A stretch of DNA of 50,604 bases from Candidatus Methanophagales archaeon (GCA_013139985.1 WSZT01000036.1:1-50604); one strand, 5' to 3'. Positions 2,773-20,812 are shown, numbered from the stretch's first letter. The notes: generated by a model not told the origin, from the sequence alone. A program made the numbers and translations.

Positions 2773-3786
2773 ATGCGATTAATACTTCCACACCCCGGGC
2801 ATTTCTCCGCTTTGAAAGAGATAATAGCAAGTAAAGAATCCAAGGGTCTGAAAGATGTAAGGGAGGTCTACATGGCCGGCTCGCCGGAAGTGATGGGGAG
2901 CGGAAGAGCGACACTATATGCACCGCTAATCGAGGATATAAAAGAGCAAACGGCATATGCGCATCAGCACAATGTAAAGCTAAATATCGCTATGAATGCC
3001 TCTTGCTTTGGTGGTTATCATCTAACGTTTGAAGGCTATAAAATGTTCAAATGGTATTTCAACGAGCTTAATAAGGCAGGCGTTGATGGCGTTACGGTGG
3101 CCGAGCCATATCTCGTAGAGCTTCTGCGTGATTCCCCGCTGGAAACGGTAATCTCATGCGTGGCGCATGTCGATTCGCCGCAACGTGCTGAATTCTTCGA
3201 GGATCTTGGCGCGGATGCGATCACCGTGGATACAAACATAAACCGGAACTTTGAGGTCTTAGAAGCAATAACGAAAGCGGTTAACTGCGACATCAGGGTA
3301 ATTGTGAATGAAGGCTGTCTTTATAAGTGCCCATTTCGGCATGCACATTTCAACCTCTTCTCGCACATAACCGCGTCATCCCTGAATGCTCGAACCCAGC
3401 CCCTGAACACTTTTGGCGACTACTATTTTGACAAGTGCATTTCTATCCGGGTAAGGGACCCCGCGCAGATTATAAGGTCGCCGTGGATAAGACCGGAAGA
3501 CATGAAGGAATATGAAGCGATAGGCATAGAAGATTTTAAGATTTCTGGTAGAGCGAATGCGGTGAACTGGATAATAAATTGCATGGCTGCATATTCGAAG
3601 GGCACGTTCGACGGTAACCTGCTTGAACTCCTCGATTGCCCATCGGAACTCCGTTATATGTTCCAGATAGATAATAAACTCCTGGACGGTAGTATAAAGC
3701 AATGGAAGAACTGCAAAAAGATATGTAATGAATGCCACTACTGCGATGAACTAACAAACAAGGTGTTGAGAGTGATAGAAAAATGA
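2773..3786 (+). CDS. U32-family Fe-S protein (putative O2-independent hydroxylase), paralog 1
   Basis: U32 TIM-barrel hallmarks (AH..NVKLNIAMN, GVDGVTVAEPYL, FKISGR), Cys motifs NEGCLYKCPF, DKC, and C-terminal CKKICNECHYC. Confidence 0.85.
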   Translation: MRLILPHPGHFSALKEIIASKESKGLKDVREVYMAGSPEVMGSGRATLYAPLIEDIKEQTAYAHQHNVKLNIAMNASCFGGYHLTFEGYKMFKWYFNELNKAGVDGVTVAEPYLVELLRDSPLETVISCVAHVDSPQRAEFFEDLGADAITVDTNINRNFEVLEAITKAVNCDIRVIVNEGCLYKCPFRHAHFNLFSHITASSLNARTQPLNTFGDYYFDKCISIRVRDPAQIIRSPWIRPEDMKEYEAIGIEDFKISGRANAVNWIINCMAAYSKGTFDGNLLELLDCPSELRYMFQIDNKLLDGSIKQWKNCKKICNECHYCDELTNKVLRVIEK

Positions 3787-4151
3787 AAGAAGAAATAAGT
3801 GAAGGCAGACGGAAGCTCGAGAAAGAACTGCGGGCTTTAGTGGGGAACATCTTCGTGCCGGAAGCGAAGGTATTTGGGATGGCTTGTGGCTGCGTAGGTT
3901 TCGCAGTGGATCTGAGAGGACTGCATGGCGATGATGTGGCGGTGTTCAAGGAGAAGATAAATGCGGTCCTGGAAGAGATAAGTCTCTCGGTTGGTGTAAA
4001 GCCGGAGTTCTTGTATGCGAGGAAGCTACCAGGTAGCGAAGAAGTGGTCACGCTTACTTCGCGTGAATTATGCGAGCGATGCAAAAGCGAGTTCGCAGGC
4101 TCAAAAGCAGCCCCAAGACCTGATATAGTAGTATTAAAGAAGAAGCGGTGA
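3783..4151 (+). CDS. Small Cys-containing conserved archaeal protein (DUF5402-like)
   Basis: ATGA overlap with the U32 stop (coupled translation); ACGCVG and CERC motifs. Family name is from recollection. Confidence 0.6.
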   Translation: MKEEISEGRRKLEKELRALVGNIFVPEAKVFGMACGCVGFAVDLRGLHGDDVAVFKEKINAVLEEISLSVGVKPEFLYARKLPGSEEVVTLTSRELCERCKSEFAGSKAAPRPDIVVLKKKR

Positions 4152-4164
4152 CAAACAAAATATA

Positions 4165-4178
4165 GAAAAGTTTTTAAA
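4165..4178 (+). promoter_or_regulatory. Putative BRE-TATA promoter of atwA-atwA-mcrC
   Basis: GAAAAG-TTTTTAAA in the intergenic region; resembles the element upstream of mcrB. Confidence 0.45.
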
Positions 4179-4307
4179 GGGGTAAAAAAGAACGTTTAAC
4201 TATAACAGCAAAAACTTCACTTTTATGTGCTAGGGACGCACAAATTATGTTGTTTGTCCATTACAAGGATATGGCTATAGGCAAAGAAGGAGGGGGAAAA
4301 GAGCGCG

Positions 4308-5909
4308 ATGGGAGAAGAGAAAGAGGTATTTATAAAAGTTAAAGGCGTGAATAAGCAATTCGAGGATAAAAAAGTATTGAAGGACATAAATCTGGATATA
4401 AAAGAGATGGAGCCTTTAGGTTTGCTCGGTAAGAGTGGCGCCGGGAAATCGGTCTTACTCCGTATGCTCCGAGGCACAGAAGAATATGCGCCGGATAGTG
4501 GTGAGATAATTTTTAGGTTGGCCTATTGCCCTTCCTGTACGTGGATAGAGGGCCCAAGCAGGGTAGGCGATAAGTGTCCGAAATGTGGTACCGAGTTTGA
4601 ATTTAAGGAAGTGAATTTCTGGCAGGATACGAGTATGAAGAGGACAATGAAGAGTGCGATTGCGATCATGCTCCAGCGCAGTTTCGCCTTGTATAGTGAC
4701 GAAGGCGTCATCTGGAATGTAATAGAAGCATTGGAGCGGGCACGATATCCAAAGAGTAAGAGGATGAAGAAGGCATATGAAATCCTGGAATCCGTAAAGA
4801 TGTTGCACCGTGTAAATATGCCTGATACAAGAGACCTCAGTGGTGGCGAGAAACAGAGAATGGTGCTTGCGAGGCAATTGGCGCTGGCTCCGATTCTGCT
4901 TTTAGCCGATGAGCCCACAGGTACGTTAGATCATGAGACAGCAAAGGTGGTGCATCGCGCACTGATAGAGACCACAAGAGGTGGAACAACATTCCTCGTC
5001 ACTTCTCATTGGCCGTATGTGATTAGGGAATTGACAGAGGAAACAGCATGGTTCGATAAGGGCGAAATAATTGAATATGGCCCGACGGATGAAGTGGTGA
5101 CTCATTTTGAGGCTCAAGTAGGCGAAATAGAGCGTGATGATTTTAAAAAGTTCGGCGACCCGATGATAAGGATAGAAAACCTAAAGAAGTATTACTTATC
5201 GGCATCGCGAGGCGTTGTGAAGGCGGTGGATGATGTCTCGTTCGAGATAAATGAGAATGAGATATTTGGTGTTGTCGGGCATAGCGGTGCGGGAAAGACG
5301 AGTTTAATGAGGATTGTAAGCCATTTAGACCCGGGGTCAGGTGGTTCTGCGTGGATAAGAGTCGGGGACAGATGGTATGAGGCATCAAAGGAGGATGCTG
5401 GTACATTCATAGAGAATGGCGTAATTGTGGGTGGTACGACCGAATGGAAATCCCATTTTGTGGGTGTCTTACATCAAGAATATAGTCTGATTCCGAAACT
5501 CACGGCCTGGGATAACCTTACGCACGGTATTGGTCTCGATATGCCAGAGGACTTAGCAACGATGAAGGTAAACTTCATGCTAAAAGGAGTGGGATTCGAA
5601 GAAGAAGAAATAGCGGAGATACTACCAAAAACGCATGATGAACTGAGCGTGGGCGAGAAACAGCGGATACTTATTGCGCAATTACTGATGAAAGAGCCTA
5701 ATATCGCGGTCCTTGATGAGCCAACCGGGACAATGGATCCGGTAACAAAGAAATACGTTGCCGAGACGATAATAAAGGCGAGGGAGAATCTGGGTACAAC
5801 TTTCGTTATTGTTACTCATGACCTTGATTTCGCAGAGAAGGTATGTGATCGAGTAGCGAAGATGGAGAATGGGAAAATCATAGAGATAGAAGATTTAAGG
5901 TCGGGTTAA
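4308..5909 (+). CDS. atwA: Methyl-coenzyme M reductase system component A2 (dual ABC ATPase), paralog 1
   Basis: Two NBDs (GKSGAGKS, GHSGAGKT; LSGGE, LSVGE; DEPTG), Zn-site insert CPSC..CPKC, AIMLQRSFALY, TSHWP and GVVKAVD motifs. Confidence 0.92.
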   Translation: MGEEKEVFIKVKGVNKQFEDKKVLKDINLDIKEMEPLGLLGKSGAGKSVLLRMLRGTEEYAPDSGEIIFRLAYCPSCTWIEGPSRVGDKCPKCGTEFEFKEVNFWQDTSMKRTMKSAIAIMLQRSFALYSDEGVIWNVIEALERARYPKSKRMKKAYEILESVKMLHRVNMPDTRDLSGGEKQRMVLARQLALAPILLLADEPTGTLDHETAKVVHRALIETTRGGTTFLVTSHWPYVIRELTEETAWFDKGEIIEYGPTDEVVTHFEAQVGEIERDDFKKFGDPMIRIENLKKYYLSASRGVVKAVDDVSFEINENEIFGVVGHSGAGKTSLMRIVSHLDPGSGGSAWIRVGDRWYEASKEDAGTFIENGVIVGGTTEWKSHFVGVLHQEYSLIPKLTAWDNLTHGIGLDMPEDLATMKVNFMLKGVGFEEEEIAEILPKTHDELSVGEKQRILIAQLLMKEPNIAVLDEPTGTMDPVTKKYVAETIIKARENLGTTFVIVTHDLDFAEKVCDRVAKMENGKIIEIEDLRSG

Positions 5910-5977
5910 TTTCACACGGAAATTCTGTTTCCGTATATAGGAGCACAATAAAATATAATATGATGGGCGTGGAAGAA

Positions 5978-7588
5978 ATGGGAGAAAAAGGGGTAATAGT
6001 AAAACTACAGGATATATGTAAGGAATTCGAGGGGAAAGAAGTTCTGAAGAATGTGAGTGTAGATATAAAGGAAGGGGAGTCATTGGGTCTACTTGGACGG
6101 AGTGGCTCAGGGAAATCAGCGTTGCTTCACATGCTGCGAGGTACTGAAGAATACGCACCCACAAGTGGCGAAATAATCTTCAGAGTGGCTATGTGCCCTT
6201 CATGCGACTGGGTGGATGCACCGAGTAAAGCAGGTGAGGCGTGTAATAAGTGCGGAGCAAAATTAGAATTGAAGGAAGTGAATTACTGGAAGGACAAAGA
6301 AGGAAAGAAGAAAGTGAAAAGGGCTGTTGCGATCATGCTCCAACGTACTTTTGGGTTATACAGTGATGATACAGTCATGTATAACGTAATACAGGCACTG
6401 GAGAGTAGGGATTACCCAGCAGAGAAGAAGTTTAAACGAGCTTATGATCTGTTGAAGTCGGTTAGAATGCTGCATCGTATTACCTTCCCCGCAGTTAACC
6501 TTAGTGGCGGTGAGAAACAGCGGGTAGTGCTCGCAAGGCAACTTGCATTAGATCCTATCTTACTTCTAGCAGACGAGCCCACGGGGACATTAGACTTTGA
6601 GACCGCAAAACTCGTACACAAAGCGCTGTTAGATAGTATAAAGGCGGGGATGACTATGGTTGTTACTTCCCACTGGCCTTACGTTATTAAAGAACTGTCA
6701 GAAAAGACGTTATGGCTTGAAAACGGCGAAATGGTGAAATATGGCGATTCAAAGGCGGTGGTGGAAGAGTTTGAGAGTCAGGTGGGCAAGATAGAACGTG
6801 AAGAATATACCAAAATAGGCGAGCCGAAGATAAAGATAGACCATTGTAAGAAGTATTATTATTCCATGTGGCGAGGAATGGTAAAAGCAGTGGATGATGT
6901 CACACTAACAATAAATGAGGGTGAAATATTTGGTCTCGTAGGCAAGAGTGGATCGGGAAAGACAAGCTTATCGCGGATTATAGCTCAAGTAGATCCGCTA
7001 ACGGATGGCTCTGTTCAGATACGGGTAGGCGATAGGTGGATAGAAGTGGGACGGGTGGCGGAAACGGGTGTCTGGCTTGCCTGGGGTGCGACTACGGAGG
7101 GAATGGGCGAGCAAGCGGCAGCACGGGTGGTTATGCTACATCAGGAATACTCATTATATCCGGAACACACAATATTAGCGAATCTAACCTCCTGTATCGG
7201 TTTGAAGATGCCAGAAGAGCTTGGGCGGATGAAAGCGAAGTTTGTTCTGCAAGGGGTGGGATTCAGCGAAGAAACAACGGAGGAAATACTGCCAAAAACG
7301 CATAGTGAACTGAGCGTTGGAGAAAGACAGCGTATTGCTCTTGCTCAGGTAATAATGAAGGAACCTGCAATAGCCGTGCTTGATGAGCCAACAGGCACAA
7401 TGGACCCGATAACAAAGAAATTCGTTGCCGATTCTATAAGGGCGGCACGTGAAAACCTTGGGGTGACACTCTTAATTGTCACTCACGACACGGATTTCGC
7501 TTACGATGTCTGTGATAAGATAGCGCAGATGCAGAATGGCAAGATAACGGAGATAGAAGACTTGAAATATGGTACCGAGCAAAAATAA
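5978..7588 (+). CDS. atwA: Methyl-coenzyme M reductase system component A2, paralog 2
   Basis: Same architecture as paralog 1 ([21 protein letters not shown]). Start at 5978 chosen by alignment with paralog 1; ORF track start is 5960. Confidence 0.92.
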
Positions 7589-8208
7589 TGGCCGTTGGTA
7601 GAGAGACGCAGATGTTAGCCTGCAGGAAAGGGCAGGGGCTTGGGTTAGGTGGCGGTATTGCCCAGAGAGGTACATTTGCGAAAGCGTGGAAGAACGATGT
7701 AGTTGCGGTTGCGATGTCTCCGGGTACAAGGCACGTGCCAAAGCCGGTATGCGAGATAACCACGGAATTAAGGGGTAAAGGTGTATCTACCGGTGTACTA
7801 GTCTTGAATGCCGGTAATGGGACGCCGCGTGATGCACCAAGGACTGGTGGACATGGTTCAATTTTTGGATTGGAGCAAAAAGAGATAGATATAATCGGTG
7901 GGCATAAGCTTGCCGTATTACATCATGGCAACGTAAAAGAGCATTTCATCTATAAAGTGCGGCTCGAGTTGAGAAAGATCCCGATTTCTGCTATCATCCT
8001 TTGTCAAAGCCCGGTAACGTTTGAGGAGTTCGAGCAGGTAGGTGTAAGCACGAGGAATAAAGAGTGTGAAACGCCGGGTAAAGTCGTGGGTATTGTGAGT
8101 GACATTGTGAGGCGAGAGAGTGTTCCGCAAGATAAACTAGACGAAATCGTGAGCAAAGTGAGAATGTGCCTCAGGGAAATAGAAGAGAGTGAAGAAAAAA
8201 AAGCCTAA
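7588..8208 (+). CDS. mcrC: Methyl-coenzyme M reductase operon protein C
   Basis: GRETQ..CR.G.GLG.GGGIAQRGT, AMSPG.RH..KPVCEIT and LVLNAG.G.P motifs; overlaps the atwA2 stop. Confidence 0.93.
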   Translation: MAVGRETQMLACRKGQGLGLGGGIAQRGTFAKAWKNDVVAVAMSPGTRHVPKPVCEITTELRGKGVSTGVLVLNAGNGTPRDAPRTGGHGSIFGLEQKEIDIIGGHKLAVLHHGNVKEHFIYKVRLELRKIPISAIILCQSPVTFEEFEQVGVSTRNKECETPGKVVGIVSDIVRRESVPQDKLDEIVSKVRMCLREIEESEEKKA

Positions 8209-8322
8209 ATTGATACTAACGTTCTTTACGCATTGTTTGAACTTGATACAACAGATCAAACCAAGGTGGCAAGACGTTCAATTAGTAATATATCAGAACA
8301 TTTAGCGTGAGATAAATGTTCC

Positions 8323-8886
8323 ATGGACGAAAAGGAAATAGCACTGTTGTGGGATGAAGACACAGCTTTTAAGCGGTATCTTGTGAATATGGGTTTTAAT
8401 TGTGAACTAGTAACACCGATAGTCTTAGTTGCTCCTTTCTTTTCCCTTACTGGTTATAAATTGTTAATTGTACCCGCGGGATTTGGGAATGAGACATATT
8501 CAAAGATATTGGTAGGGCTCAGAGCAAAAAGTGAACACATAAAAGATTTTGTAGAGGCGGGGGGGACACTCTTTATATTCGGTGCGCTTTCAAATAAGGA
8601 GGTATATAACTGGCTCCCGGTAAAACTCAAATATGTGATGGAGGAGAGGCGGGTAAGAATATTAGTGGTGAAGAAGCATAAAGCAGCGATGATAGTGGAA
8701 AAAGAAGAATGCATGTGTGATGGCTACTTTACGGAGGTAGGAGAAGAAGGCGAGATATTTTTAAAGGAAGAGGGAGGGAAAGCGATTTTGGCTCTCGCGG
8801 AATACGGAGCTGGTGCTATTATTGCTACAACAATCCATGAATATCCATCCAGGGAATTTATAGCGTATTGTGTGGGGAGAAGATAA
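8323..8886 (+). CDS. Conserved hypothetical protein (class I glutamine amidotransferase-like fold)
   Basis: LIVPAGFGN..YS, FVEAGGTLFIFGA and TTIHEYPS; resembles a conserved Methanomicrobia family. Confidence 0.6.
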   Translation: MDEKEIALLWDEDTAFKRYLVNMGFNCELVTPIVLVAPFFSLTGYKLLIVPAGFGNETYSKILVGLRAKSEHIKDFVEAGGTLFIFGALSNKEVYNWLPVKLKYVMEERRVRILVVKKHKAAMIVEKEECMCDGYFTEVGEEGEIFLKEEGGKAILALAEYGAGAIIATTIHEYPSREFIAYCVGRR

Positions 8887-8963
8887 TTGTATCTAATACG
8901 AACATATATCCATAAGCAAACATAAAAGTTATAAAGTCGCTATGTATAAGGGGGGGAGATATT

Positions 8964-11216
8964 GTGTTCAAGAAGATAGAAAAAAGAGATGGTAGGGTAA
9001 AAAAATTCGAAGTAGAGAAGATTACAAATGCAATTGCAAAAGCAGGTGAGGTGACCGGCGAATTCGATTATGAGATAGCGCAGAAATTGACCCTCAAGGT
9101 TTTGAATTTAGCACAACAGGCGATTCCCCGTGATATACCGACAGTGGAAGAGATACAGGATGTAGTCGAAGAGATTTTATTATCCTCTCCATATCGCAAA
9201 ACGGCTAAGGCGTACATTATTTATCGAGAGCAGCATGCGGGCATAAGAGAGATTACTTCCAGAGCGAATGTTGACCTGGTTGACCAATATTTAGAGAAGA
9301 TTGACTGGCAGGTGAACGAAAATAGCAATATGTCGTTCTCTCTACAAGGGTTAAACAATTATGTATCGTCGGAAATAACTAAAATTTACTGGCTGGTTAA
9401 AATTTACCCGCCGGAAATCAGGCAAGCGCATTTAAATGGCGATTTCCATATACACGACTTAAATCTTCTCTCCGTTTATTGTGTTGGCTGGGACCTTTTT
9501 GACCTTTTGGTAGAGGGATTCAAGGGGGCACCGGGGAAGATAGAAAGCAAACCAGCTAAGCATCTCCATAGCGCTTTAGGGCAGGTAGTGAATTTCTTTT
9601 ATACGCTTCAGGGTGAGGCGGCGGGAGCGCAAGCGTTCTCCAATTTTGATACGCTTCTTGCGCCTTTCATACGATATGATCGCTTGAGCTACAAAGAAGT
9701 GAAGCAGGCATTGCAGGAGTTTATATTTAACATAAATGTCCCTACAAGGGTAGGATTCCAAACTCCGTTCACAAACATCACCTTAGATTTGACGGTTCCT
9801 AAATACTACGCCGACAAGGGCGTGATTATTGGTGGCAAGCTACAGCACGAGACGTATAATGAGTTCCAGGAGGAAATGGCGTTGTTCAATAGGGCCTTTT
9901 TAGAAGTGATGGCAGAGGGCGATGCAAAAGGCCGGGTATTTACTTTCCCTATCCCTACCTATAACATTTCCAGGGACTTTAACTGGGAGAATAGTAATTT
10001 GGAAGGTCTATGGGAACTTACAGCAAAATACGGGGTGCCGTATTTCAGTAATTTTATCAATTCTGATATGAACCCTGAAGATGCCAGAAGCATGTGCTGT
10101 CGGTTAAGAATAGATAATAGAGAGTTAGAAGTAAGAGGAGGCGGACTTTTCGGCTCCAATCCCTTAACCGGTTCTATTGGTGTGGTCACGATTAACATGG
10201 GAAGACTTGGATATTTAGCCAAAGACGAAGATGAGTTCCTCACCTCTTTAGAACGGTTAATGATTCTGGCAAAGGCGAGTTTGGAGATAAAGAGGGGCGT
10301 GTTAGAGAAGTTTACGGAAGAAAAACTTTATCCGTATACACAATTTTATTTGAGAGGCGTAAAAGAGCGTTTTGGCGAATACTGGAAGAACCATTTCTCT
10401 ACGATTGGTTTATTGGGTATGAATGAAGCCTGCTTGAATTTCTTGGGAGTGGATATTGCAGCGAAAAAATCCCGGGAGTTTACCGTAAGAGTTTTAGATT
10501 TTATGCGTGAAAAATTACTGGAGTTCCAGGAGGAGACGGGGAATAATTATAATCTCGAGGCTACGCCAGCGGAGGGAACTTCTTATAGATTGGCGAGGAT
10601 AGACAAGGAGAAGAATCCAGAAATAATCTGCGCTAACGAAGAGGAGTATAAGGCAGGAGCCGAGCCGTTTTATACTAATTCTACACAACTACCGGTGAAT
10701 TACACGGATGATGTCTTCGAGGCGTTAGATTTGCAGGACGCAATCCAGACAAAATATACGGGAGGAACGGTATTACATGTATTCGCAGGTGAGCGGGTTA
10801 AAGACCCTGATACCATTAAGGGGTTAATACGTAAAGTTTGTGAGTCATATCATTTGCCTTATTTCACGTTCACGCCTACGTTTAGTGTATGTCCCTCTCA
10901 TGGTTATATCGCGGGGGAACATAGTACTTGTCCAGAGTGCGGTGCGGAGACCGAGGTATATTCACGTGTAGTGGGTTATCTACGGCCGGTAAACCAGTGG
11001 AACAAAGGTAAGCGGGAAGAATTTAGAAAACGGAAGACCTTTGTCGTAGAACCAGTTCAACCACTTGAAATCGGTGGAAAAGGGAAGGTGAGTCGGGCGT
11101 TGGATTCAACTACAAAAACAAGCAAAGCTGTTGGTGTCAAGGGCAATTATGGGGCTGTTGAGTATAAACAGTTGGATTTGATTACTTTTGGTGATGATGT
11201 GGATGAGACGGAATGA
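8964..11216 (+). CDS. nrdD: Class III (anaerobic) ribonucleoside-triphosphate reductase with N-terminal ATP cone
   Basis: KRDG ATP cone, SMCCRL, EATPAEG, CPSHG..CPEC Zn site, YSRVVGYLRPV glycyl-radical loop. Confidence 0.95.
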   Translation: MFKKIEKRDGRVKKFEVEKITNAIAKAGEVTGEFDYEIAQKLTLKVLNLAQQAIPRDIPTVEEIQDVVEEILLSSPYRKTAKAYIIYREQHAGIREITSRANVDLVDQYLEKIDWQVNENSNMSFSLQGLNNYVSSEITKIYWLVKIYPPEIRQAHLNGDFHIHDLNLLSVYCVGWDLFDLLVEGFKGAPGKIESKPAKHLHSALGQVVNFFYTLQGEAAGAQAFSNFDTLLAPFIRYDRLSYKEVKQALQEFIFNINVPTRVGFQTPFTNITLDLTVPKYYADKGVIIGGKLQHETYNEFQEEMALFNRAFLEVMAEGDAKGRVFTFPIPTYNISRDFNWENSNLEGLWELTAKYGVPYFSNFINSDMNPEDARSMCCRLRIDNRELEVRGGGLFGSNPLTGSIGVVTINMGRLGYLAKDEDEFLTSLERLMILAKASLEIKRGVLEKFTEEKLYPYTQFYLRGVKERFGEYWKNHFSTIGLLGMNEACLNFLGVDIAAKKSREFTVRVLDFMREKLLEFQEETGNNYNLEATPAEGTSYRLARIDKEKNPEIICANEEEYKAGAEPFYTNSTQLPVNYTDDVFEALDLQDAIQTKYTGGTVLHVFAGERVKDPDTIKGLIRKVCESYHLPYFTFTPTFSVCPSHGYIAGEHSTCPECGAETEVYSRVVGYLRPVNQWNKGKREEFRKRKTFVVEPVQPLEIGGKGKVSRALDSTTKTSKAVGVKGNYGAVEYKQLDLITFGDDVDETE

Positions 11217-11258
11217 CTGGCAAGAATATTTAAATGCTGATGCCAATATGTTAATAGC

Positions 11259-11951
11259 ATGTTAATTGGCGGTTTTCAGCGTTTCTCGCTAATAGACTAT
11301 CCCGGCAAGATATGTGCGATTGTGTTTACCCAGGGCTGCAATCTCAAGTGTCCGTACTGCCACAATCCGGAGCTGGTGGACCCGAAACTCTTCTCGCATC
11401 CCATCCCTGAGGCAGACATCTTTGCATTTTTGCAAACTCGGCGTGGAAAGCTGGATGCGGTGGAAATAACGGGTGGGGAACCAACACTGCAGCCCGACCT
11501 GATTGATTTTACCAAAAAGATAAAATCATTGAACTTCCTGGTTAAGCTGGATACAAACGGTAGCAATCCGGGAATATTAAGAGAACTGATTGAATTAAAT
11601 ATGGTGGACTATCTTGCGATGGATGTGAAAGCACCTCTGGAGCGTTACCAGGAGATTACTAATTCTAATGTTGACCAGGCGAAAATAAAAGATAGTATCG
11701 AGTTAATCATGCATGCGGGATTGGATTATGAATTTCGAACAACAGTGGTAAAATCGCAACTCGGTAAGACCGACATTTTGGCGATAGGTAAACTGATACG
11801 TGGTAGTAAACGCTATGTCTTGCAGAAATTCATGCCGGAAACGGTATTGGACCAAGAAATTCTTGATGGTGTGGTGATTTACACAGATGAAGATTTAGTA
11901 TGTTTTAGGGATGCGGTAAAGAGTTATGTGGCCGAATGTGTGGTGCGGTAG
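11259..11951 (+). CDS. nrdG: Anaerobic RNR activating radical SAM enzyme
   Basis: SLIDYPG, GCNLKCPYCHNP and TGGEPT motifs; directly downstream of nrdD. Confidence 0.93.
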   Translation: MLIGGFQRFSLIDYPGKICAIVFTQGCNLKCPYCHNPELVDPKLFSHPIPEADIFAFLQTRRGKLDAVEITGGEPTLQPDLIDFTKKIKSLNFLVKLDTNGSNPGILRELIELNMVDYLAMDVKAPLERYQEITNSNVDQAKIKDSIELIMHAGLDYEFRTTVVKSQLGKTDILAIGKLIRGSKRYVLQKFMPETVLDQEILDGVVIYTDEDLVCFRDAVKSYVAECVVR

Positions 11952-11955
11952 AATG

Positions 11956-14846: not shown

Positions 14847-14910
14847 TAGATCACTTCATTACAGAAAAATTGACTTCGCCCACGCCAATGAATCATGGCT
14901 AGGAAGTTAC

Positions 14911-15216: not shown

Positions 15217-15227
15217 TTTTTCTCTCC

Positions 15228-15464
15228 TTATCCAGCACCAGCACCATCTACGGCACCCATATCCATACTCGCTTCCAGTTCCTGGGCATAACACTCAGCG
15301 CAAAGAATTCTTCCCTGTACTGCAATGAATTCACCTTCTTTCACCTCTTTACCACAACTTGAACAAATCGCTTCCTTTGGTCGCAGTTCATCAGCCCTTT
15401 CTGCCTCTCTCTCCTGCCACCTTTTCGTTCTCTCGAGTGGCGTCTCTTCTACTCCTTGGGTCAT
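15228..15464 (-). CDS. Small Zn-finger protein
   Basis: CSSC-x17-CAEC; Gly/Ala C-terminal tail GAVDGAGAG; divergent from ycaO. Confidence 0.65.
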   Translation of the reverse strand: MTQGVEETPLERTKRWQEREAERADELRPKEAICSSCGKEVKEGEFIAVQGRILCAECYAQELEASMDMGAVDGAGAG

Positions 15465-15517
15465 TTTACTAACAACTAAAACTAATTAAGTCATTCTATA
15501 TAAAGGTGAAGATAAAG

Positions 15518-16702
15518 ATGAAAATAGTGCTCAGACGGACGCCGAAAAGATACTTCTTCGATTCACATAGAGCTTTAACGCCTGAGGAGACGCTGAGCGA
15601 TGTCGAAGACCTAAAAGATAAGGTAGGAATAACGAAGGTAGAGGATATTACAGGGCGGGATAAGCTCGATATACCTATATGTTCTGCGAGCCGGCCGGGA
15701 GCAAAAGAAGGTGCAGTGTCGGTCCACGCCGGAAAAGGGCTTACAGATGAGCAATCGCGTGTATCGGTGCTCATGGAAGCAATAGAGCGATATTCCGCGG
15801 AAATAAAAGATGATGACCGGGCGGGATTCATGTTTGAATCATATAGTGAATGCGAAGGCGCAAAAGTGAACCCATCATCGCTAATATTGAGTGCTATTTC
15901 TAACGTTGGTCCGAAAACAAAGATAGAGTGGTGTGACGGCTATGACCTACTGCGAGAAGAGGAGATTCTAGTGCCGGCAAATGCGGTATTTCATCCCTAC
16001 ATGTCTAATCGAGGAGGAAGACTATTTAGAAGCGACAGTAACGGCATAGCGTCTGGTAACAATTACGAAGAAGCTATCTTTCATGGTATATCCGAAGTGA
16101 TAGAGCGCGACGCTTTAAGTTCGGTAGAGCTAAAGAAGGATGCAGGTGAGCGAATAGAACTCAGCGAAGAGGATGGCATGATCTACGAGTTAAAAGAGCG
16201 ATTTGAGTCGGTGGGTGCAGTACCTCGATTCTGGTATATCCCATCAGACACGGGATTTACAACGGTTGCATTAGCTTTAGATGACCTCTCCGAGGATCCT
16301 TCTTTACTCGTTTATGGCGCGGGGACACATAGCGATCCGAGAATAGCAACAATAAGAGCAATAACAGAAGCAGCGCAGTCGCGACTCATGCAGATAGTGA
16401 GTGGCGATGTAATGAAAACGCCATTTGTAATGAGTTATTCCGCAATGAAGCGATTGAATAAGCACTGGTATGAAGATAAGGGAGACGAAAAAGTGAAGTT
16501 GAACGAGCTTCCAGCTCTGGCGACTGATACAATAGATGGTGATATAATGGTTGCGCTTGATAAATTGAAGGAGCTTGTGGACCGAGTAATTGTGGTAGAT
16601 TTAACGCGGGCCGAGATAGGTATTCCAGTTGTCAGGGTGATTATTCCCGGATTTGAAGTGTATGCGCGGAACTCGGAGAGGATAGGGCATAGGTACAAGT
16701 GA
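15518..16702 (+). CDS. ycaO: YcaO-family McrA thioglycine (thioamide) synthase (methanogenesis marker 1)
   Basis: HRAL.PEET, DITGRDKLDIP, GKG, MEAIERYS, SNGIASGN..EEA, EVIERDA, RAITEAAQSR and PVVRVIIPGFE motifs. ATG 15518 follows an AGGTGA SD. Confidence 0.9.
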   Translation: MKIVLRRTPKRYFFDSHRALTPEETLSDVEDLKDKVGITKVEDITGRDKLDIPICSASRPGAKEGAVSVHAGKGLTDEQSRVSVLMEAIERYSAEIKDDDRAGFMFESYSECEGAKVNPSSLILSAISNVGPKTKIEWCDGYDLLREEEILVPANAVFHPYMSNRGGRLFRSDSNGIASGNNYEEAIFHGISEVIERDALSSVELKKDAGERIELSEEDGMIYELKERFESVGAVPRFWYIPSDTGFTTVALALDDLSEDPSLLVYGAGTHSDPRIATIRAITEAAQSRLMQIVSGDVMKTPFVMSYSAMKRLNKHWYEDKGDEKVKLNELPALATDTIDGDIMVALDKLKELVDRVIVVDLTRAEIGIPVVRVIIPGFEVYARNSERIGHRYK

Positions 16703-16765
16703 GTCGGCACAAAAAACCATCGATTTTTGTGCAGACAATGCAAAGTGCAAAGTGCAAAAGTCAAA
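16702..16765 (+). repeat. Hairpin + heptamer-array element, copy 2
   Basis: AGTCGGCACAAAAAAC-catc-GATTTTTGTGCAGACA, then AAAGTGC AAAGTGC AAAAGTC; homologous to 12951-13020. Confidence 0.8.
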
Positions 16766-16771
16766 GATACT

Positions 16772-17725
16772 TCAACGGTGCTTTGTATTTAGGGGAGAAA
16801 ACTTCCTTATCGCCTCTTCCAGTTCCTGACGATATTCTAAATCGTCACGTTCGACCTCTCGAAGTATTTCTTCCCTTGTCTTCGATTTAGAAAGAGAAAG
16901 CCATGTGATTCTATCCTCTTCCTGGTCCTTTATGGTTCTTCTCCTGGAGCTGAGGTCAGGGTAAACGGTTATCCATGTTTCTTGTGGTGGTGGAGTAGGA
17001 TATTCACGATAGCAGCTCCTGCTAATTATAGCATTAGGAAGGTACTCAGCAGCGATTTTGTACGCTCGTTCCATATCTTCTATTGTTGGACGCTCTGTCA
17101 CACGCTCAAACGCGAAGGTAGGCGCAAATGGGTTTATCCTGAATTTTATGTTGCTATTCACGTCAGAAAGGAAAATAGCTATCTGTTCTATCTCCTCCAC
17201 GTCCACAATACCGGGCATATACACCGTTTGTATTAGCAGTTCCACCCCTGTATCGTTTAACATTCTCACGGCATTTAATACCGGTTTGTTCGACTTGCCG
17301 GTATACCATATATGGATTTCATCCGAGAAAGCTTTAATGTCTATATGGGCTTCTGTTAAACCCGCCTCCTTCAACTCGGCTGCATAATTACTATTTCCTT
17401 CCCGTCCTATCTCATAACCATTGGACATTAAAATAATCTCCTCAAATCCTTTTTCCTTCAAACCTTTTACGAGCGTCAGGAGAAATTCCTTGTCGAGTGT
17501 GGGTTCGCCACCGGTAATCATCGCTTTGGTAGGCAGCTTACCATAGTGTTTGAGGCATGCCTGTTCAGCGCGCTTTAGCGTCTCCTCCGGACTGAGCAAG
17601 GTCCCGCCGCCATCGCGTGCCGGTCGGAAACAGCCGCGGCAGCGGAAGTCACAGCCGGTGAGCATGAACCAGATGCGGGGTTCTATATCAGAAAGCGTAA
17701 AATATTGTATGTTCCTTTTGCCCAT
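16772..17725 (-). CDS. Radical SAM protein (glycyl-radical-activase/PflA-like fold, function unknown)
   Basis: GCDFRCRGC (CxxxCxxC), TGGEPT, SNG and DIKAF motifs. Confidence 0.85.
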   Translation of the reverse strand: MGKRNIQYFTLSDIEPRIWFMLTGCDFRCRGCFRPARDGGGTLLSPEETLKRAEQACLKHYGKLPTKAMITGGEPTLDKEFLLTLVKGLKEKGFEEIILMSNGYEIGREGNSNYAAELKEAGLTEAHIDIKAFSDEIHIWYTGKSNKPVLNAVRMLNDTGVELLIQTVYMPGIVDVEEIEQIAIFLSDVNSNIKFRINPFAPTFAFERVTERPTIEDMERAYKIAAEYLPNAIISRSCYREYPTPPPQETWITVYPDLSSRRRTIKDQEEDRITWLSLSKSKTREEILREVERDDLEYRQELEEAIRKFSPLNTKHR

Positions 17726-17849
17726 TTTTTCTCTTAATTATTATATTGGCTACTAATTAATATTAAAAGATTAGAAATCTCGTATTTGTGATGAAACTAT
17801 ACCTTTTTTATGCTTTGCACACAAACAAGAAATAGGTGAAAAAAAAAAT

Positions 17850-18254
17850 ATGGTAAAAATCACAGAAGAAGTGAAAGAGCTAGTAGGTAAATCAAAGGGT
17901 TTTGCTGTCGCTACCGCTACCAAAGAAGGAGAGCCAAATGTGGTGCCGCTTGCATTTGGGAAAGTTCTATCAGAGACGGAAGTGCTGCTGATGGATGTCT
18001 TTATGAAAAAGACGGAAGAGAATATAAAGACAAATCCCAGGGTGGCTATTTCTGTCTGGGATATGGAGACTTATACAGGCTATCAGTTTAAAGGTAGTGC
18101 TCGGATAGAAACGTCGGGAAGCGTCTTTGACGATGGCGTTAATATGGTGAAAGCAATGATGCCCTCGCTTAACCCAAAAGCTGCGGTTGTCGTTACGGTG
18201 GACTCCATCTATGTGACTTCTCCGGGACCCGATTTGGGTAAAAAGGTAGAATAG
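17850..18254 (+). CDS. Pyridoxamine 5'-phosphate oxidase-like flavin (FMN/F420)-binding protein
   Basis: VATATKEGEPNVVP, KT..NI..NP.VAI, GYQFKG and TSPGPD.GK motifs. Confidence 0.85.
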   Translation: MVKITEEVKELVGKSKGFAVATATKEGEPNVVPLAFGKVLSETEVLLMDVFMKKTEENIKTNPRVAISVWDMETYTGYQFKGSARIETSGSVFDDGVNMVKAMMPSLNPKAAVVVTVDSIYVTSPGPDLGKKVE

Positions 18255-18312
18255 AAGAAATTGTAGTGAAACAGTTATTAATATTAATAGAATACAAAAA
18301 ATCGGTGACAAA

Positions 18313-19797
18313 ATGCAAAGAAAGGTAGAAGAAAAGAAGACATTTATGCTTTTAGTGGTGGCGGGTATAGTGCTATTAACCGTAACGATAGGAACAGTGG
18401 CAGGGGCTGGATCTTCGAGTGGGGGCAGCGAGTGTCCTACTTGCAATTTTGAGCCTACTTATGACTTCTTGATGGGTGACGATGGAACCACCTGCTCTTC
18501 CTGTGGTGGTCAACGCCTGTCTGATTCTTTGAATCTTTTTTCTGATGATATTCCTATTCATCCTACAAATTGTGACTATGAGAATCCAGGCCTCATTGTT
18601 TATATGGACGATCTTAGAAATAACAGTGATCCAAATGTTGTGATCGCGGATGTTCGCACTCCTGAGCAATATGCGGAGGGGCACATTCCGGGTGCAATAA
18701 ATTTGGATTGGGCTAATTTCAGAAAGGGAAAAGGCGTTTTTATCGGAGTTGAAAATGCAACGAGGATTTTAGGTGAGCAGGGAATAAATGAGGAGAATGA
18801 AATAATCGTGTATTGCAGTAGTGCTATGGGTACGCAATGCCCGGCATCTTATTATGTCTTCTGGATGCTCGAATACCTCGGGCATGAGCACGTTTCGGTC
18901 CTGGATGGTGGGTTCAATGCATGGAGCCCTGCGTATGGATACACGCAGAACGAGACGACACGAGCTCCTACTACGTATACAGCCACTGTGGTGGACGAGA
19001 GGTTTGCCGATACAGAGTGGGTTCAAAATAATCTTAATAACTCGGCGGTTCAGATAGTGGATGCAAGAACGACAGAAGACTACAAGGCGGGTCATATCGA
19101 AGGTGCAATAAACATAAACTACGAAAATCTGTTTAGAGATGGGGACCGGTTGAGAGGAGCGGATGGACTGAGGTTGTTTTTATCGCCTGTCGTGATCCCC
19201 GGATTGGATAAAAAGAAGGATACAGTTGTGTATTGCCAATCAGGAGCGAGCGCGTCATTCTTGTATCTCGCATTGCGAATGATGGGTTATCAAGTGCGGA
19301 ATTATGACGGGTCATGGAACGTATGGTGTGAAACACATCCTGAGCTAACGATACCGATTTCAAATGTGAGTGTAAATCCGAGTTCTGTATATAAAGGTGG
19401 TACAGTAAGCATATATGCAGATGTAAAAATCAATTCTACTGAAATGAAGGAAGAGGCAACGGGCACCTCGCTTAATCCAAGTGGACGTAATCTACCATAT
19501 ATTCCCGGTGCAGGTTGCGCTTATTGTAGTGGCGCATCTGCTGTCCCGACATCCTCTACATCCACCGGTACTTCTTTTGTCCGTGGATACATATATGATG
19601 GCAATGGAACCAATGTTAAGATTGTCATTATGCAGACTGATGATAGCGGTGATAGGCGATATCTGGGTGAATGGGAGACAGACTCCGCAGAAGAGGGAAT
19701 TTACCACGTGGATATTGTAGCATCGGATGGAGTATTAAGGGCAAAGGAAAAGGATGCGGCAACGTTTGAAGTGGTGTCAGATACTGCGGGTCCCTAA
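18313..19797 (+). CDS. Exported/membrane-anchored tandem-domain rhodanese (sulfurtransferase) with C-terminal beta-sandwich
   Basis: N-terminal basic+hydrophobic signal; GHIPGA and GHIEGA; YCSSAMG and YCQSGASA loops; YDGSWNVW. Confidence 0.85.
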   Translation: MQRKVEEKKTFMLLVVAGIVLLTVTIGTVAGAGSSSGGSECPTCNFEPTYDFLMGDDGTTCSSCGGQRLSDSLNLFSDDIPIHPTNCDYENPGLIVYMDDLRNNSDPNVVIADVRTPEQYAEGHIPGAINLDWANFRKGKGVFIGVENATRILGEQGINEENEIIVYCSSAMGTQCPASYYVFWMLEYLGHEHVSVLDGGFNAWSPAYGYTQNETTRAPTTYTATVVDERFADTEWVQNNLNNSAVQIVDARTTEDYKAGHIEGAININYENLFRDGDRLRGADGLRLFLSPVVIPGLDKKKDTVVYCQSGASASFLYLALRMMGYQVRNYDGSWNVWCETHPELTIPISNVSVNPSSVYKGGTVSIYADVKINSTEMKEEATGTSLNPSGRNLPYIPGAGCAYCSGASAVPTSSTSTGTSFVRGYIYDGNGTNVKIVIMQTDDSGDRRYLGEWETDSAEEGIYHVDIVASDGVLRAKEKDAATFEVVSDTAGP

Positions 19798-19810
19798 TAT
19801 TAGAAAGAAA

Positions 19811-20812
19811 ATGCGATTAATAGTTCCACATCCGGGGCATTTTGAAGCGTTGAAGGAGATAATAGCGGTCAAAGAGGCGGAGGGCTTGAAGGAAGTAGAC
19901 GAGGTTTTTATGGGCGGATCTCCGGATGTGATGGGTAGTGGACGAGGAGTGCTACATGCACCGCTTATTGAAGAGATAAAGGAACAGACCGAATATGCGC
20001 ATCAACATGGCATAAAGATGAATGTGGTGATGAACTCAACATGTACAGGCGGGCATCACCTGACGTTCGAGGGCTATAAGATGTTTGAGTGGTACTTTGG
20101 GGAACTGAACAAAGCGGGTGTTGATGCAGTTACGATGGCAGAGCCATACTTGGTGGAGTTACTTCGTGAATTCCCAATGAAGATAGTTGTATCAGTTTTA
20201 TCGTATGTTGATGCGCCACAGCGAGCGAAATTCTTTGAAGACCTCGGCGCTGATGTGATAACCGTGGACACGAACATAAACCGGCACTTTGATCTGTTAG
20301 AGGGGATAGTAAAGGCGGTGAACTGTGACGTACGGATAATAGTGAATGAAGGCTGCCTATATAAATGCCCGTTTAGATACTCGCATTACAATCTCGCCTC
20401 GCATCTTAGTAGTTTAAACCAGCCTCAGTCTCCGCTATTTGCGCCCGACTATTATTTTGACAAGTGCATAGCCATCCGTCTGAGGAATCCGACACAGATG
20501 ATAAAGTCCGGATGGATAAGACCAGAGGACGTAAAGGAATACGAAGCAATAGGTATTGCGGACATCAAGCTTTCCGGTAGGACAAAGGCAGTGAATTGGA
20601 TAATAAATTGTATGCGGGTATATTCCAAGAGGTCGTACAAGGGTAACCTGCTTGAACTTCTTGATTGTCCTCAGATGCTCAGGTACATGTTTTACATAGA
20701 CAATGAGAAGCTTGCGGGTGGTATAGAGCACTGGAAGAGCTGCAAGAAGATATGTAATGAATGTGGCTATTGTGATACACTAACAAAGGACGCAGTAACC
20801 ATTTTAAAATGA
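19811..20812 (+). CDS. U32-family Fe-S protein (putative O2-independent hydroxylase), paralog 2
   Basis: Colinear with paralog 1 (MRLIVPHPGHF.ALKEII; NEGCLYKCPF; CKKICNECGYC). Start set to 19811 by alignment. Confidence 0.85.
   Translation: MRLIVPHPGHFEALKEIIAVKEAEGLKEVDEVFMGGSPDVMGSGRGVLHAPLIEEIKEQTEYAHQHGIKMNVVMNSTCTGGHHLTFEGYKMFEWYFGELNKAGVDAVTMAEPYLVELLREFPMKIVVSVLSYVDAPQRAKFFEDLGADVITVDTNINRHFDLLEGIVKAVNCDVRIIVNEGCLYKCPFRYSHYNLASHLSSLNQPQSPLFAPDYYFDKCIAIRLRNPTQMIKSGWIRPEDVKEYEAIGIADIKLSGRTKAVNWIINCMRVYSKRSYKGNLLELLDCPQMLRYMFYIDNEKLAGGIEHWKSCKKICNECGYCDTLTKDAVTILK

Follow-up and report, generated by a model that had tools for sequence, protein, structure and literature searches.

The locus described here raises the question of which enzyme hydroxylates tryptophan in MCR without oxygen. 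Reviews of MCR modifications report none, as the initial annotation of this DNA held, and no paper linking U32 proteins to MCR modifications was found in our literature search. The analyzed stretch of DNA (50,604 nucleotides of a Candidatus Methanophagales archaeon, GCA_013139985.1 WSZT01000036.1:1-50604; hereafter the window) originates from ANME-1, as its McrA aligns end-to-end with PDB 3SQG_A (1289 bits, 579/579 residues). The Trp333 of McrA (within YDQLW) that had been annotated was confirmed by direct reading and by this alignment, and Met is found at position 499.

Two U32 genes in the mcr region of ANME-1

The gene order initially described around both U32 genes was reproduced by ORF and profile annotation of the window:

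2773-3786, + strand: U32a, 337 aa, Pfam PF01136 (38.2 bits), eight conserved Cys, orthogroup of 51 ANME-1 sequences
3783-4151, + strand: DUF5402, small 4-Cys partner (CGC...CxxC), 122 aa, PF17393, start overlapping the U32a stop
4308-5909, + strand: atwA copy 1 (MCR activation component A2, double ABC ATPase), two ABC_tran domains
5960-7588, + strand: atwA copy 2, two ABC_tran domains, synteny kept
7588-8208, + strand: mcrC, TIGR03264 (244.5 bits, cut-off 213.5)
15506-16702, + strand: ycaO (methanogenesis marker 1, McrA thioglycine formation), TIGR03266 (406 bits, cut-off 365)
19811-20812 (ORF open from 19754), + strand: U32b, paralog of U32a, PF01136, orthogroup of 42 ANME-1 sequences
20870-21433, + strand: class I SAM methyltransferase between U32b and mcrB, Methyltransf_23/11/25 matches
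22034-23329, + strand: mcrB, Pfam MCR_beta and MCR_beta_N
23191-24192 (ORF coordinates), + strand: mcrG, MCR_gamma (364.6 bits)
24194-25933, + strand: mcrA, match to 3SQG_A, Trp333 codon at 25190-25192

The true start of mcrG is probably located downstream of the listed ORF start, because the Pfam match opens at residue 55. For U32b, 19811 is the likely start, as the alignment with U32a begins at Met20 of the longer ORF. The genes form two blocks, U32a-DUF5402-atwA-atwA-mcrC (2773-8208) and U32b-methyltransferase-mcrB-mcrG-mcrA (19811-25933), and the presence of ycaO in the window means that the region also houses other MCR modification genes. The position of atwA copy 1 downstream of DUF5402 is kept across ANME-1 loci, and the adjacency of the methyltransferase and U32b is kept within this genus (loci L054, L055, L057, L059, L062 and L069). 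That the U32 genes flank the MCR machinery, as first described, is true in the window but reflects a rearrangement in this genus; the more common ANME-1 arrangement is mtr-U32b-U32a-DUF5402-(atwA-atwA)-mcrC.

U32a and U32b are indeed colinear paralogs, with 234/336 identities (70%) in BLASTP across their full length, and they are the only copies of their clade in the 87%-complete genome. Both belong to the Pfam family Peptidase_U32 (38.2 and 33.9 bits, respectively, gathering cut-off 22.4), the match being partial (profile positions 5-90 for U32a and 5-64 for U32b out of 233). All eight conserved cysteines of U32a (78, 182, 186, 222, 314, 318, 321 and 324) are kept in U32b, and the motifs quoted initially are present as NEGCLYKCPFRHAH, FDKC and C314-x3-C318-x2-C321-x2-C324. 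On the basis of this Cys conservation, both are predicted to be Fe-S proteins. Contigs from RNA libraries of two studies span U32a-DUF5402 and U32b, which is weak evidence in favor of the function proposed below. Annotations as 'U32 family peptidase' or 'collagenase-like PrtC protease', like the name of the Pfam family, would indicate a true collagenase-like peptidase. This is highly improbable, given that the Pfam match is confined to the initial third of the profile, that the invariant residues are mostly the eight Cys and that a cytoplasmic protein is encoded in an operon together with the 4-Cys protein DUF5402 and genes of methane metabolism. Moreover, the well-studied U32 members are Fe-S proteins for hydroxylation, not proteolysis (PMC10990095 among other papers).

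DUF5402 as partner of U32 and distribution of the module

The gene at 3783-4151 was absent from the initial annotation and turned out to be the conserved partner of U32. Its product scores 128.2 bits against DUF5402 (gathering cut-off 25), and C35, C37, C97 and C100 are invariant among 32 sequences. Of the 78 loci, 71 extend at least 450 nt downstream of the U32 gene, and in 66 of these DUF5402 comes directly after it. The same adjacency was seen in all seven Methanobacteriota loci fetched, as well as at Methanosarcinales, Methanoliparum and Syntrophoarchaeum loci. A U32/U32 pair as the conserved unit was therefore not borne out; the unit is U32 plus DUF5402 (the module). In most lineages other than ANME-1, each module contains a single U32 gene. 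Methanoperedens harbors two modules and Syntrophoarchaeum four to five U32 genes, while ANME-1 has two U32 genes and one DUF5402. These copy numbers do not map simply onto hydroxy-Trp sites, which counts against a role of the module in hydroxy-Trp formation.

DUF5402 was detected in 87 of 401 genomes sampled from the phylum of the window, and strong U32-clade matches (E<1e-140) adjoin it in those same genomes. The module was found in 25 of 48 Methanosarcinaceae and in 8 of 301 sampled Methanobacteriota genomes, paired every time. As Methanolobus, Methanococcoides, Methanohalophilus, Methanothermus fervidus and Methanothermobacter tenebrarum are among the carriers, the clade is not ANME-specific. 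McrA was present in each of the 12 non-ANME-1 genomes with a strong U32-clade match that were checked. A spread in non-MCR organisms lacking mcr linkage had been named as an observation that would speak against a role in MCR modification; the clade was found only in MCR/ACR archaea.

At 46 of the 78 module loci, mcr, atwA/mcrC or mtr is present. At five Methanoperedens loci the gene order is U32-DUF5402-orf-GAF-DUF2098-mcrBDGA. Methanoliparum and UBA8915 show mcrB(C)GA-U32-DUF5402, with a B12-radical-SAM gene coming next in Methanoliparum, and Syntrophoarchaeum shows acrA-U32-DUF5402. The arrangements of Methanoperedens, Methanoliparum, Syntrophoarchaeum and ANME-1 are independent of one another. 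The module thus shows the pattern of MCR modification machinery, namely occurrence in MCR/ACR genomes only and recurrent mcr linkage. The MCR modification enzymes YcaO/TfuA, Mmp10, McmA and MgmA are likewise found in MCR archaea only and often beside mcr; none of them is oxygenating, and none is of the U32 or DUF5402 family. Known MCR modification genes are patchy, each distribution following its modification (reviews including PMC9081873).

The module also adjoins the mtr operon in ANME-1 and Methanosarcinaceae. In ANME-1 its neighbors are the mtr operon on one side and atwA-atwA-mcrC on the other, and in Methanococcoides, Methanolobus and Methanohalophilus it is located immediately upstream of mtrEDCBAFGH, distant from mcr. 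With this adjacency, Mtr or a shared cofactor is an equally good candidate for the target. Still within methane metabolism, the module might catalyze another oxidative step on MCR (such as the formation of S-oxy-methionine in ANME-1), modify Mtr or a cofactor such as F430 or a corrinoid, or play a redox part next to A2 and McrC in ATP-dependent MCR activation. The eight U32 and four DUF5402 cysteines would suit electron transfer, and copy numbers that do not track known hydroxy-Trp sites point in the same direction. Nevertheless, we regard such another target as rather unlikely, since all methanogens have Mtr, A2, McrC and F430 whereas the module is patchy, as seen from the Methanosarcinaceae and Methanobacteriota counts and from the M. 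acetivorans control, where it was not found, and we know of no modification of Mtr. S-oxy-Met and methylthio-F430 are ANME-1 traits (PMC9081873), while the module is far wider in distribution.

Relationship to characterized U32 proteins

In a phylogenetic tree, the MCR-linked U32 clade was monophyletic (support 91) with the Methanopyrus sp. protein P0124 as sister. E. coli UbiU, UbiV, TrhP and RlhA were all placed outside, which agrees with the separate clade suggested initially and speaks against the grouping with the RNA hydroxylases TrhP and RlhA that had been considered as well.

UbiU and UbiV (E. coli YhbU/YhbV) are O2-independent, prephenate-dependent ubiquinone ring hydroxylases that share with this clade the U32 superfamily and conserved Cys, implying Fe-S clusters. 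They further resemble it in having two paralogs per genome and a small accessory protein, although UbiT is an SCP2 protein unrelated to DUF5402, and in the proposed chemistry, the hydroxylation of an aromatic ring in an anaerobe. However, their substrate is a prenylated phenol, whereas the substrate proposed here is a protein residue, and ubiquinone is not made by the hosts of this clade. Using hhalign, UbiU was matched with 93.5% probability over 131 N-terminal columns, the Cys region not aligning, and BLASTP gave only a local match of 66 residues (26% identity, E 0.038). For UbiV, hhalign found nothing and BLASTP listed no match. Homology to validated U32 hydroxylases is detectable over approximately the first 130 residues only, which counts against a hydroxylase function.

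The spacing of the UbiU/TrhP/RlhA-type Cys motif CX6CX15CX3/4C (CX6CX16CX38C in UbiU) differs from that in the clade, a further point against a hydroxylase function; compared to UbiU/UbiV, the clade carries an extra C-terminal CX3CX2CX2C motif. In the UbiV motif CXnCX12CX3C the first Cys lies upstream of the U32 domain; the clade has the upstream C78 and a CX3C element, and C172-x9-C182-x3-C186 recalls this motif, C172 being variable (T in Methanolobus, G in Methanohalophilus). Neither protein belongs to the NCBIfam equivalogs TrhP (NF011996) and UbiU (NF047963): U32b reached 16.7 bits against a TrhP cut-off of 534, and U32a gave no match to NCBIfam. RlhA (23S rRNA ho5C2501) showed 21% identity over 234 residues (E 8e-5) and TrhP (tRNA ho5U34) a local BLASTP match of 47 residues (E 2), the likeness to both consisting in the U32 domain, Cys needed for function and O2-independent hydroxylation of an aromatic heterocycle. 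The nearest solved structure by sequence is MK0906 of the MCR archaeon Methanopyrus kandleri (PDB 5D88; E 3.6e-22, residues 54-206), annotated as 'predicted protease of the collagenase family'. In this chain of 254 residues the CxxxC motif is lost, AITFRDP replacing CLYKCPF.

The wider 8-Cys family includes distant relatives (25-28% identity) in 222 phage records. Those listed are large phages (about 155-175 kb) infecting enterobacteria and Shewanella, and at the one phage locus examined the homolog is located between DNA polymerase and the RecA-like recombinase. These phage-borne relatives lack MCR context and count against a hydroxy-Trp function. They would suit an RNA or nucleotide hydroxylase acting like RlhA/TrhP at a tRNA or rRNA position specific to these archaea, with a merely historical mcr/mtr linkage, as would the location of the module away from mcr in Methanobacteria and the fact that characterized U32 enzymes other than UbiU/UbiV act on RNA (PMC5727448, PMC6599085, PMC10990095). 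We consider this improbable, because the clade together with DUF5402 was found only in McrA-bearing archaea, mcr synteny occurs in several separate arrangements and U32b falls far short of the TrhP cut-off. DUF5402 was found neither beside the phage homolog nor beside distant archaeal relatives, and a role in RNA modification could be filled by the third U32 protein of the genome, which is canonical and TrhP/UbiU-like (639 aa).

Agreement with known hydroxy-tryptophan and proposed function

The presence of the module was compared with MCRs of known modification state (MCR modification table, PMC9081873; ANME-2 data, PMC12413448), as the initial annotation had proposed. The profile covers five cases, few and partly related, as ANME-2c and ANME-2d fall in one order; among them all three positives carry the module and both negatives lack it, a tentative agreement. 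The positives are the ANME-1 window with its 3SQG-like McrA of the 7-OH-Trp type (PMC9081873), an ANME-2d Methanoperedens locus (L076) with a 6-OH-Trp McrA (1225 bits against 9QQT) and the module 2 kb upstream of mcrB, and genome G750 with a 6-OH-Trp McrA (1296 bits against 9QM5, ANME-2c) and adjacent U32 and DUF5402 genes. In the Ethanoperedens-type genome G707 (single contig, 94% complete), neither a U32-clade gene nor DUF5402 was found; its AcrA matches 7B1S (ECR, 1407 bits), an enzyme without OH-Trp, and the module was present in none of six genomes of its family. No DUF5402 was found in the M. acetivorans control, whose MCR is without OH-Trp, and the module was absent from all 12 genomes of the genus taken as Methanosarcina (g38).

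M. formicicus MCR contains 6-OH-Trp, whereas the MCRs of M. thermolithotrophicus, M. marburgensis, M. wolfeii, M. shengliensis and M. kandleri are without OH-Trp (PMC9081873). In M. kandleri, an MCR without OH-Trp thus coincides with a homolog (5D88) without CxxxC, which we count in favor of a hydroxy-Trp function. At the 6-OH site, modified enzymes (M. formicicus W429, ANME-2c W437) and unmodified enzymes (M. shengliensis, M. acetivorans, M. barkeri) alike carry Trp, so that the difference must reside in accessory genes. M. jannaschii carries DUF5402, yet its MCR is not known to contain hydroxy-Trp, which counts against this function. Hydroxy-Trp is likewise not known from the module carriers Methanolobus, Methanococcoides, Methanohalophilus, M. 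fervidus and M. tenebrarum.

Of the U32-based modification system suggested initially, the separate clade and the mcr linkage were retained, while the U32 pair as its unit was not; the restriction to MCR/ACR archaea and the agreement with hydroxy-Trp support it. The module may function as an O2-independent, MCR-directed Trp hydroxylase, to which we tentatively assign a probability of roughly 0.45. It would produce 7-hydroxy-Trp333 in ANME-1 McrA and 6-hydroxy-Trp at the position equivalent to M. formicicus W429 in ANME-2 McrA; as the ANME-1 Trp and ring carbon differ from those of ANME-2 and M. formicicus, one family would need to have switched both site and regiochemistry, which counts against this reading. 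U32a and U32b would act jointly with the DUF5402 protein encoded beside U32a, which might serve as an electron-transfer or substrate-presenting partner. If the mechanism resembles that of UbiU/UbiV, the Fe-S clusters would draw two electrons out of the indole ring, to which a prephenate-derived hydroxide would be added. The genome encodes both chorismate mutase and prephenate dehydratase, and prephenate should therefore be available. The substrate would be McrA prior to its burial in the assembled enzyme. We infer the hydroxylase chemistry, the prephenate donor, the McrA substrate and the role of DUF5402 from sequence comparison and genomic context, which suggest the U32-DUF5402 module as the best candidate yet for oxygen-free Trp hydroxylation in MCR.

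Gene content of the window and its U32 paralogs

By its McrA, the window derives from an ANME-1 archaeon: the protein encoded at 24194-25933 aligned over all 579 residues with chain A of the ANME-1 MCR structure (PDB 3SQG, 1289 bits), with Trp at position 333 (YDQLW) and Met at position 499. The gene order was assigned with Pfam and NCBIfam.

Gene order of the window
Before U32a, first in order: PEMT-like methyltransferase
2773-3786: U32a
3783-4151: DUF5402 (PF17393), 122 aa, overlapping the U32a stop codon
4308-7588: two tandem paralogous atwA genes (component A2), before mcrC
After the tandem atwA: mcrC
8323-8886: ORF of 187 aa with a weak DUF7408 match
8964-11951: nrdD and its activase gene nrdG (anaerobic ribonucleotide reductase), between the mcrC block and the post-translational modification gene block
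After nrdD/nrdG: methyltransferase
Between this methyltransferase and ycaO, minus strand: HD hydrolase
15506-16702: ycaO (methanogenesis marker 1)
After ycaO, in the block 16772-21433, minus strand: radical-SAM gene
Between the radical-SAM gene and the rhodanese: PNPOx-like gene
18313-19797: multi-domain rhodanese, 494 aa
19811-20812: U32b
Between U32b and mcrB: class I methyltransferase
After the class I methyltransferase: mcrB, mcrG, mcrA
Downstream of mcrBGA: housekeeping genes (proteasome alpha, SBDS, exosome subunits, primase)

The two colinear U32 genes described in the initial annotation are indeed paralogs, with 234 of 336 residues identical (70%). In U32b, the longer ORF, the aligned region starts at Met20, and this favours 19811 as the start of the gene. 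The initial annotation had, however, taken the U32 pair as the unit and overlooked the DUF5402 gene at the U32a stop codon. For a comparison of the paralogs, sequences from the fetched ANME-1-group loci and the window's own two were sorted into orthogroups of 51 U32a-type and 42 U32b-type sequences. Conserved and identical in both groups were 188 columns, while 12 were group-specific; six of the latter lie between the Cys motifs (positions 193-214), the expected place for a loop that selects the substrate. The duplication is old. RNA libraries from two studies yielded contigs across U32a-DUF5402 (one spans 3393-4420) and U32b; this is not proof of transcription, and contig depth cannot rank genes.

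Several other features of the window recur in related loci. The tandem atwA pair before mcrC is kept in many ANME-1 loci, with a single atwA in others; the 187-aa ORF lies downstream of DUF5402 or mcrC in many of them, and nrdD follows mcrC in some. No tfuA was found alongside ycaO in the window, where the closest sulfur-handling gene is the rhodanese. The radical-SAM gene, the rhodanese and the SAM methyltransferase stay grouped beside mcrBGA in the window's genus (L055, L059, L062) and, speculatively, might either form the 17(2)-methylthio group on the F430 of ANME-1 or supply YcaO with sulfur.

The U32-DUF5402 module, its neighbourhood and distribution

When a single genome was scanned for each species, 457 stretches encoding a relative were found, of which the best 78 distinct loci were examined. 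DUF5402 directly followed the U32 gene(s) on the 3' side in 66 of the 71 loci with at least 450 nt of downstream sequence; the loci lacking it are mostly U32b loci of the window's genus, where a methyltransferase takes its place. The unit is thus U32 plus DUF5402. Since two U32 genes stand in tandem (U32b-U32a-DUF5402) in 45 of the 78 loci, the layout of the window is a rearrangement of its genus; U32 genes flanking the MCR genes, as initially described, are seen in the window but reflect this genus-level change, with U32b beside a methyltransferase and mcrBGA (L054, L055, L057, L059, L062, L069).

DUF5402 contains four invariant cysteines (CGC ... CxxC) in 32 diverse sequences. A profile search against the PDB gave no meaningful match (best E 0.37, ribosomal protein LX), and the ESM Atlas returned only matches below 0.9 for DUF5402, and for U32a its own clusters plus one virus-labelled cluster. 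Predictions of a U32a-DUF5402 complex scored 0.16 and 0.01 against a mark of 0.32, which is evidence neither way. Fused tandem duplicates of DUF5402 (234-253 aa) are encoded in Syntrophoarchaeum and Alkanophaga (L086:4042-4767, L087:8502-9263, L091:8223-8927), hinting that the working form of the protein may be a dimer.

Core genes of methane metabolism surround the module in several arrangements independent of one another, and mcr, atwA/mcrC or mtr genes were present in 46 of the 78 loci, many of the remaining ones being short contigs. The order is U32b-U32a-DUF5402-(atwA-atwA)-mcrC in ANME-1, U32-DUF5402-orf-GAF-DUF2098-mcrBDGA in Methanoperedens (L070, L071, L075, L076, L079), mcrGA-U32-DUF5402 in UBA8915 and acrA-U32-DUF5402 at one of the copies in Syntrophoarchaeum. 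In Methanoliparum, mcrBCGA-U32-DUF5402 is followed by a B12-binding radical-SAM gene (L077:9431-10756), probably another MCR/ACR modification enzyme. A free-standing GAF-domain gene (~145-150 aa) is a constant neighbour of U32-DUF5402 in 7/7 Methanobacteriota loci (e.g. L097:8047-8496, L099:8977-9414, L100:9077-9529); a gene of the same type lies two genes downstream of the module in Methanoperedens (L076:9817-10263), and none was found in the ANME-1 window. In the ten loci of ANME-1 or Methanoxibalbensis whose sequence reaches far enough upstream, a complete mtrEDCBAGH operon lies on that side of the U32 genes, and in Methanococcoides, Methanolobus and Methanohalophilus the module is immediately upstream of mtrE. 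That the module acts on another target in methane metabolism (Mtr, a cofactor, another modification of MCR, or its activation) is the foremost alternative to Trp hydroxylation, though we hold it to be rather unlikely. Several specific products were considered and rejected: methanophenazine (2-hydroxyphenazine), hydroxyarchaeol and the 5-hydroxybenzimidazole of the Mtr corrinoid are each universal or present in Methanosarcina, which is devoid of the module, and didehydro-aspartate is present in M. acetivorans, which nevertheless lacks DUF5402.

Within a sample of 401 genomes of the window's phylum, DUF5402 was detected in 87, and U32-clade matches with E<1e-140 adjoined it in the same genomes. 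DUF5402 was also counted by family in a sample of 151 genomes of the order Methanosarcinales.

Occurrence of the module genes by family (genomes with the gene/genomes in the sample)
Phylum sample, ANME-1 family: DUF5402 51/54, U32 54/54
Phylum sample, family f2: DUF5402/U32 2/2
Phylum sample, family f3: DUF5402/U32 2/3, each genome carrying four to five copies of U32
Phylum sample, family f13: DUF5402/U32 2/5
Phylum sample, family f7 (Methanosarcinaceae): DUF5402/U32 26/52
Methanosarcinales sample, family f31: DUF5402 49/49
Methanosarcinales sample, family f37: DUF5402 24/27
Methanosarcinales sample, family f34: DUF5402 17/20
Methanosarcinales sample, family f7 (Methanosarcinaceae): DUF5402 25/48
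Methanosarcinales sample, family f39: DUF5402 0/6

One genus of Methanosarcinaceae with genomes of 3-4 Mb had DUF5402 in 0/12, and only 8 of 301 Methanobacteriota genomes encoded it, each with an adjoining U32 gene. McrA was present in all 12 non-ANME-1 genomes with a strong U32-clade match that were tested. Identical or clustered proteins are assigned by public sources to Methanophagales, Methanoxibalbensis, Alkanophaga, Syntrophoarchaeum, Methanoliparum, Methanoperedens and the 'ANME-2 cluster', and further from Methanolobus, Methanococcoides, Methanohalophilus, Methanothermus fervidus and Methanothermobacter tenebrarum/MT-2; the named matches listed include no Methanosarcina, M. marburgensis or M. 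wolfeii protein. Of the 14 named genomes that served as controls, only Methanocaldococcus jannaschii showed DUF5402; Methanosarcina acetivorans did not. A protein search seeded with M. fervidus gave no Methanococcales among the best 120 of 241 matches. A control search with PF01136 matched both M. jannaschii and M. acetivorans and is therefore uninformative on the U32-DUF5402 clade.

Comparison with known U32 enzymes

According to the sections consulted of a study in which the prephenate mechanism is described (PMC10990095), the majority of U32 subfamilies have yet to be characterised. Compared by BLASTP with the E. coli enzymes from the annotated K-12 record, the window's clade was closest to RlhA (21% identity over 234 residues, E 8e-5); UbiU, UbiV and TrhP were weaker still, and all four were barely detectable. 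In profile comparison only ~130 N-terminal columns of UbiU aligned (93.5% probability), hhalign found no match for UbiV, and the NCBIfam score for TrhP was 16.7 bits against a cut-off of 534. In a FastTree phylogeny of 95 sequences, 16 MCR-linked proteins and one Syntrophoarchaeum representative formed one clade (support 91) with a Methanopyrus sp. protein as sister (support 93). All four E. coli enzymes fell outside it, in agreement with the separate clade anticipated by the initial annotation. The conserved cysteines, C78, C182-x3-C186, C222 and a C-terminal CX3CX2CX2C, differ in pattern from the published CX6CX15CX3/4C motif and are kept in all clade members apart from one ANME-2 sequence, in which residue 314 is His; all eight are also kept in 119 of 147 more distant representatives (~30-50% identity).

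A third U32 gene of the window's genome (contig 128, 9783-10403 region; L120:2734-4653, minus strand) encodes a 639-aa protein that matched the whole Pfam profile (208 bits) and resembles TrhP (186 bits) and UbiU (157 bits), both below cut-offs. This canonical protein is a natural candidate for any RNA-hydroxylase role, which argues against reading the module itself as an RNA or nucleotide hydroxylase, an improbable alternative in our estimate.

Distant homologs (25-28% identity) occur in 222 phage records, those listed being large (~155-175 kb) phages of enterobacteria and Shewanella. The one phage sequence aligned, from Shigella phage vB_SdyM_006 (L122:4965-6131), keeps most signature residues, with the Cys at 78 replaced and a Cys at 192 present; its gene sits between those for a DNA polymerase and a RecA-like recombinase and is annotated as 'peptidase'. 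That the module's U32 is a true peptidase seems very improbable. DUF5402 was absent beside this phage homolog and beside the distant archaeal relatives. The wide spread in non-MCR organisms that was named beforehand as speaking against an MCR-directed role is thus true of the superfamily but not of the DUF5402-partnered clade.

Hydroxy-tryptophan profile and proposed function

In the table of post-translational modifications of PMC9081873 and in passages of PMC12413448, hydroxy-Trp is recorded for ANME-1 (C7) and for M. formicicus, ANME-2c and two ANME-2d enzymes (C6), and as absent from M. marburgensis I and II, M. wolfeii, M. barkeri, M. acetivorans, M. kandleri, M. thermolithotrophicus, M. 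shengliensis and Ethanoperedens ECR. Genomes were tied to the solved structures through their McrA/AcrA matches.

Hydroxy-Trp state and occurrence of the module
ANME-1 window: McrA 1289 bits to 3SQG; 7-hydroxy-Trp; two U32 genes and DUF5402
Methanoperedens (L076): McrA 1225 bits to 9QQT (ANME-2d); 6-hydroxy-Trp; module 2 kb upstream of mcrB
ANME-2c genome (G750): McrA 1296 bits over 561/561 to 9QM5; 6-hydroxy-Trp; U32 and DUF5402 adjacent on contig 103
Ethanoperedens-type genome (G707): 1407 bits over 595/595 to 7B1S (ECR); no hydroxy-Trp; neither gene found, single contig, 94% complete
M. acetivorans (named control genome): no hydroxy-Trp; no DUF5402

The module was thus present in 3/3 positives reached and missing in 2/2 directly tested negatives. 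The M. kandleri homolog (PDB 5D88), which has lost the CxxxC motif, fits this indirectly, as does the lack of Methanosarcina, M. marburgensis and M. wolfeii proteins among the named matches listed. Because the Trp at the 6-hydroxy site is kept in modified and unmodified enzymes alike, some factor besides McrA must decide whether the modification is present. The window's genome encodes chorismate mutase and prephenate dehydratase.

The initial finding is real, and stronger than could have been known from the window alone, once its unit is taken as U32 plus DUF5402. We consider it possible, with a probability of roughly 45%, that the module is an O2-independent, MCR-directed Trp hydroxylase. A far more specific proposal, which we regard as improbable, is that it would be the first protein-directed O2-independent U32 oxygenase of the prephenate type, with the ANME-1 paralogs splitting the work on McrA, one making its 7-hydroxy-Trp333 and the other its S-oxy-methionine, and with DUF5402 as a shared Fe-S or Zn partner docking on nascent McrA. 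In ANME-1 MCR these two modifications, both of which bear oxygen, take the place of 5-methyl-arginine.

Nearly all biological formation and anaerobic oxidation of methane runs through MCR. How oxygen is placed on its Trp (and Met) in strict anaerobes has been a question since the ANME-1 structure. A full-text literature search found no paper connecting a U32 protein with MCR modification. In the parts consulted, a 2020 mini-review describes hydroxy-Trp as lacking any known enzyme, reviews list the enzyme as unknown, and the passages searched of the 2025 ANME-2 structure paper (PMC12413448) propose none; a 2024 preprint, likewise seen in part, reports 'peptidase U32' families as enriched in ANME-2/3 over methanogenic Methanosarcinaceae and leaves this uninterpreted there. 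The correct modification genes are required when ANME MCR is to be expressed in methanogens. The module offers a concrete two-gene candidate and makes the old question accessible to a handful of practicable experiments. Predicted carriers of hydroxy-Trp are Methanolobus, Methanococcoides, Methanohalophilus, M. fervidus and M. tenebrarum. If the Trp hydroxylase reading is true, U32/prephenate-dependent hydroxylation would extend from quinones and RNA to proteins, and DUF5402 would gain a function.
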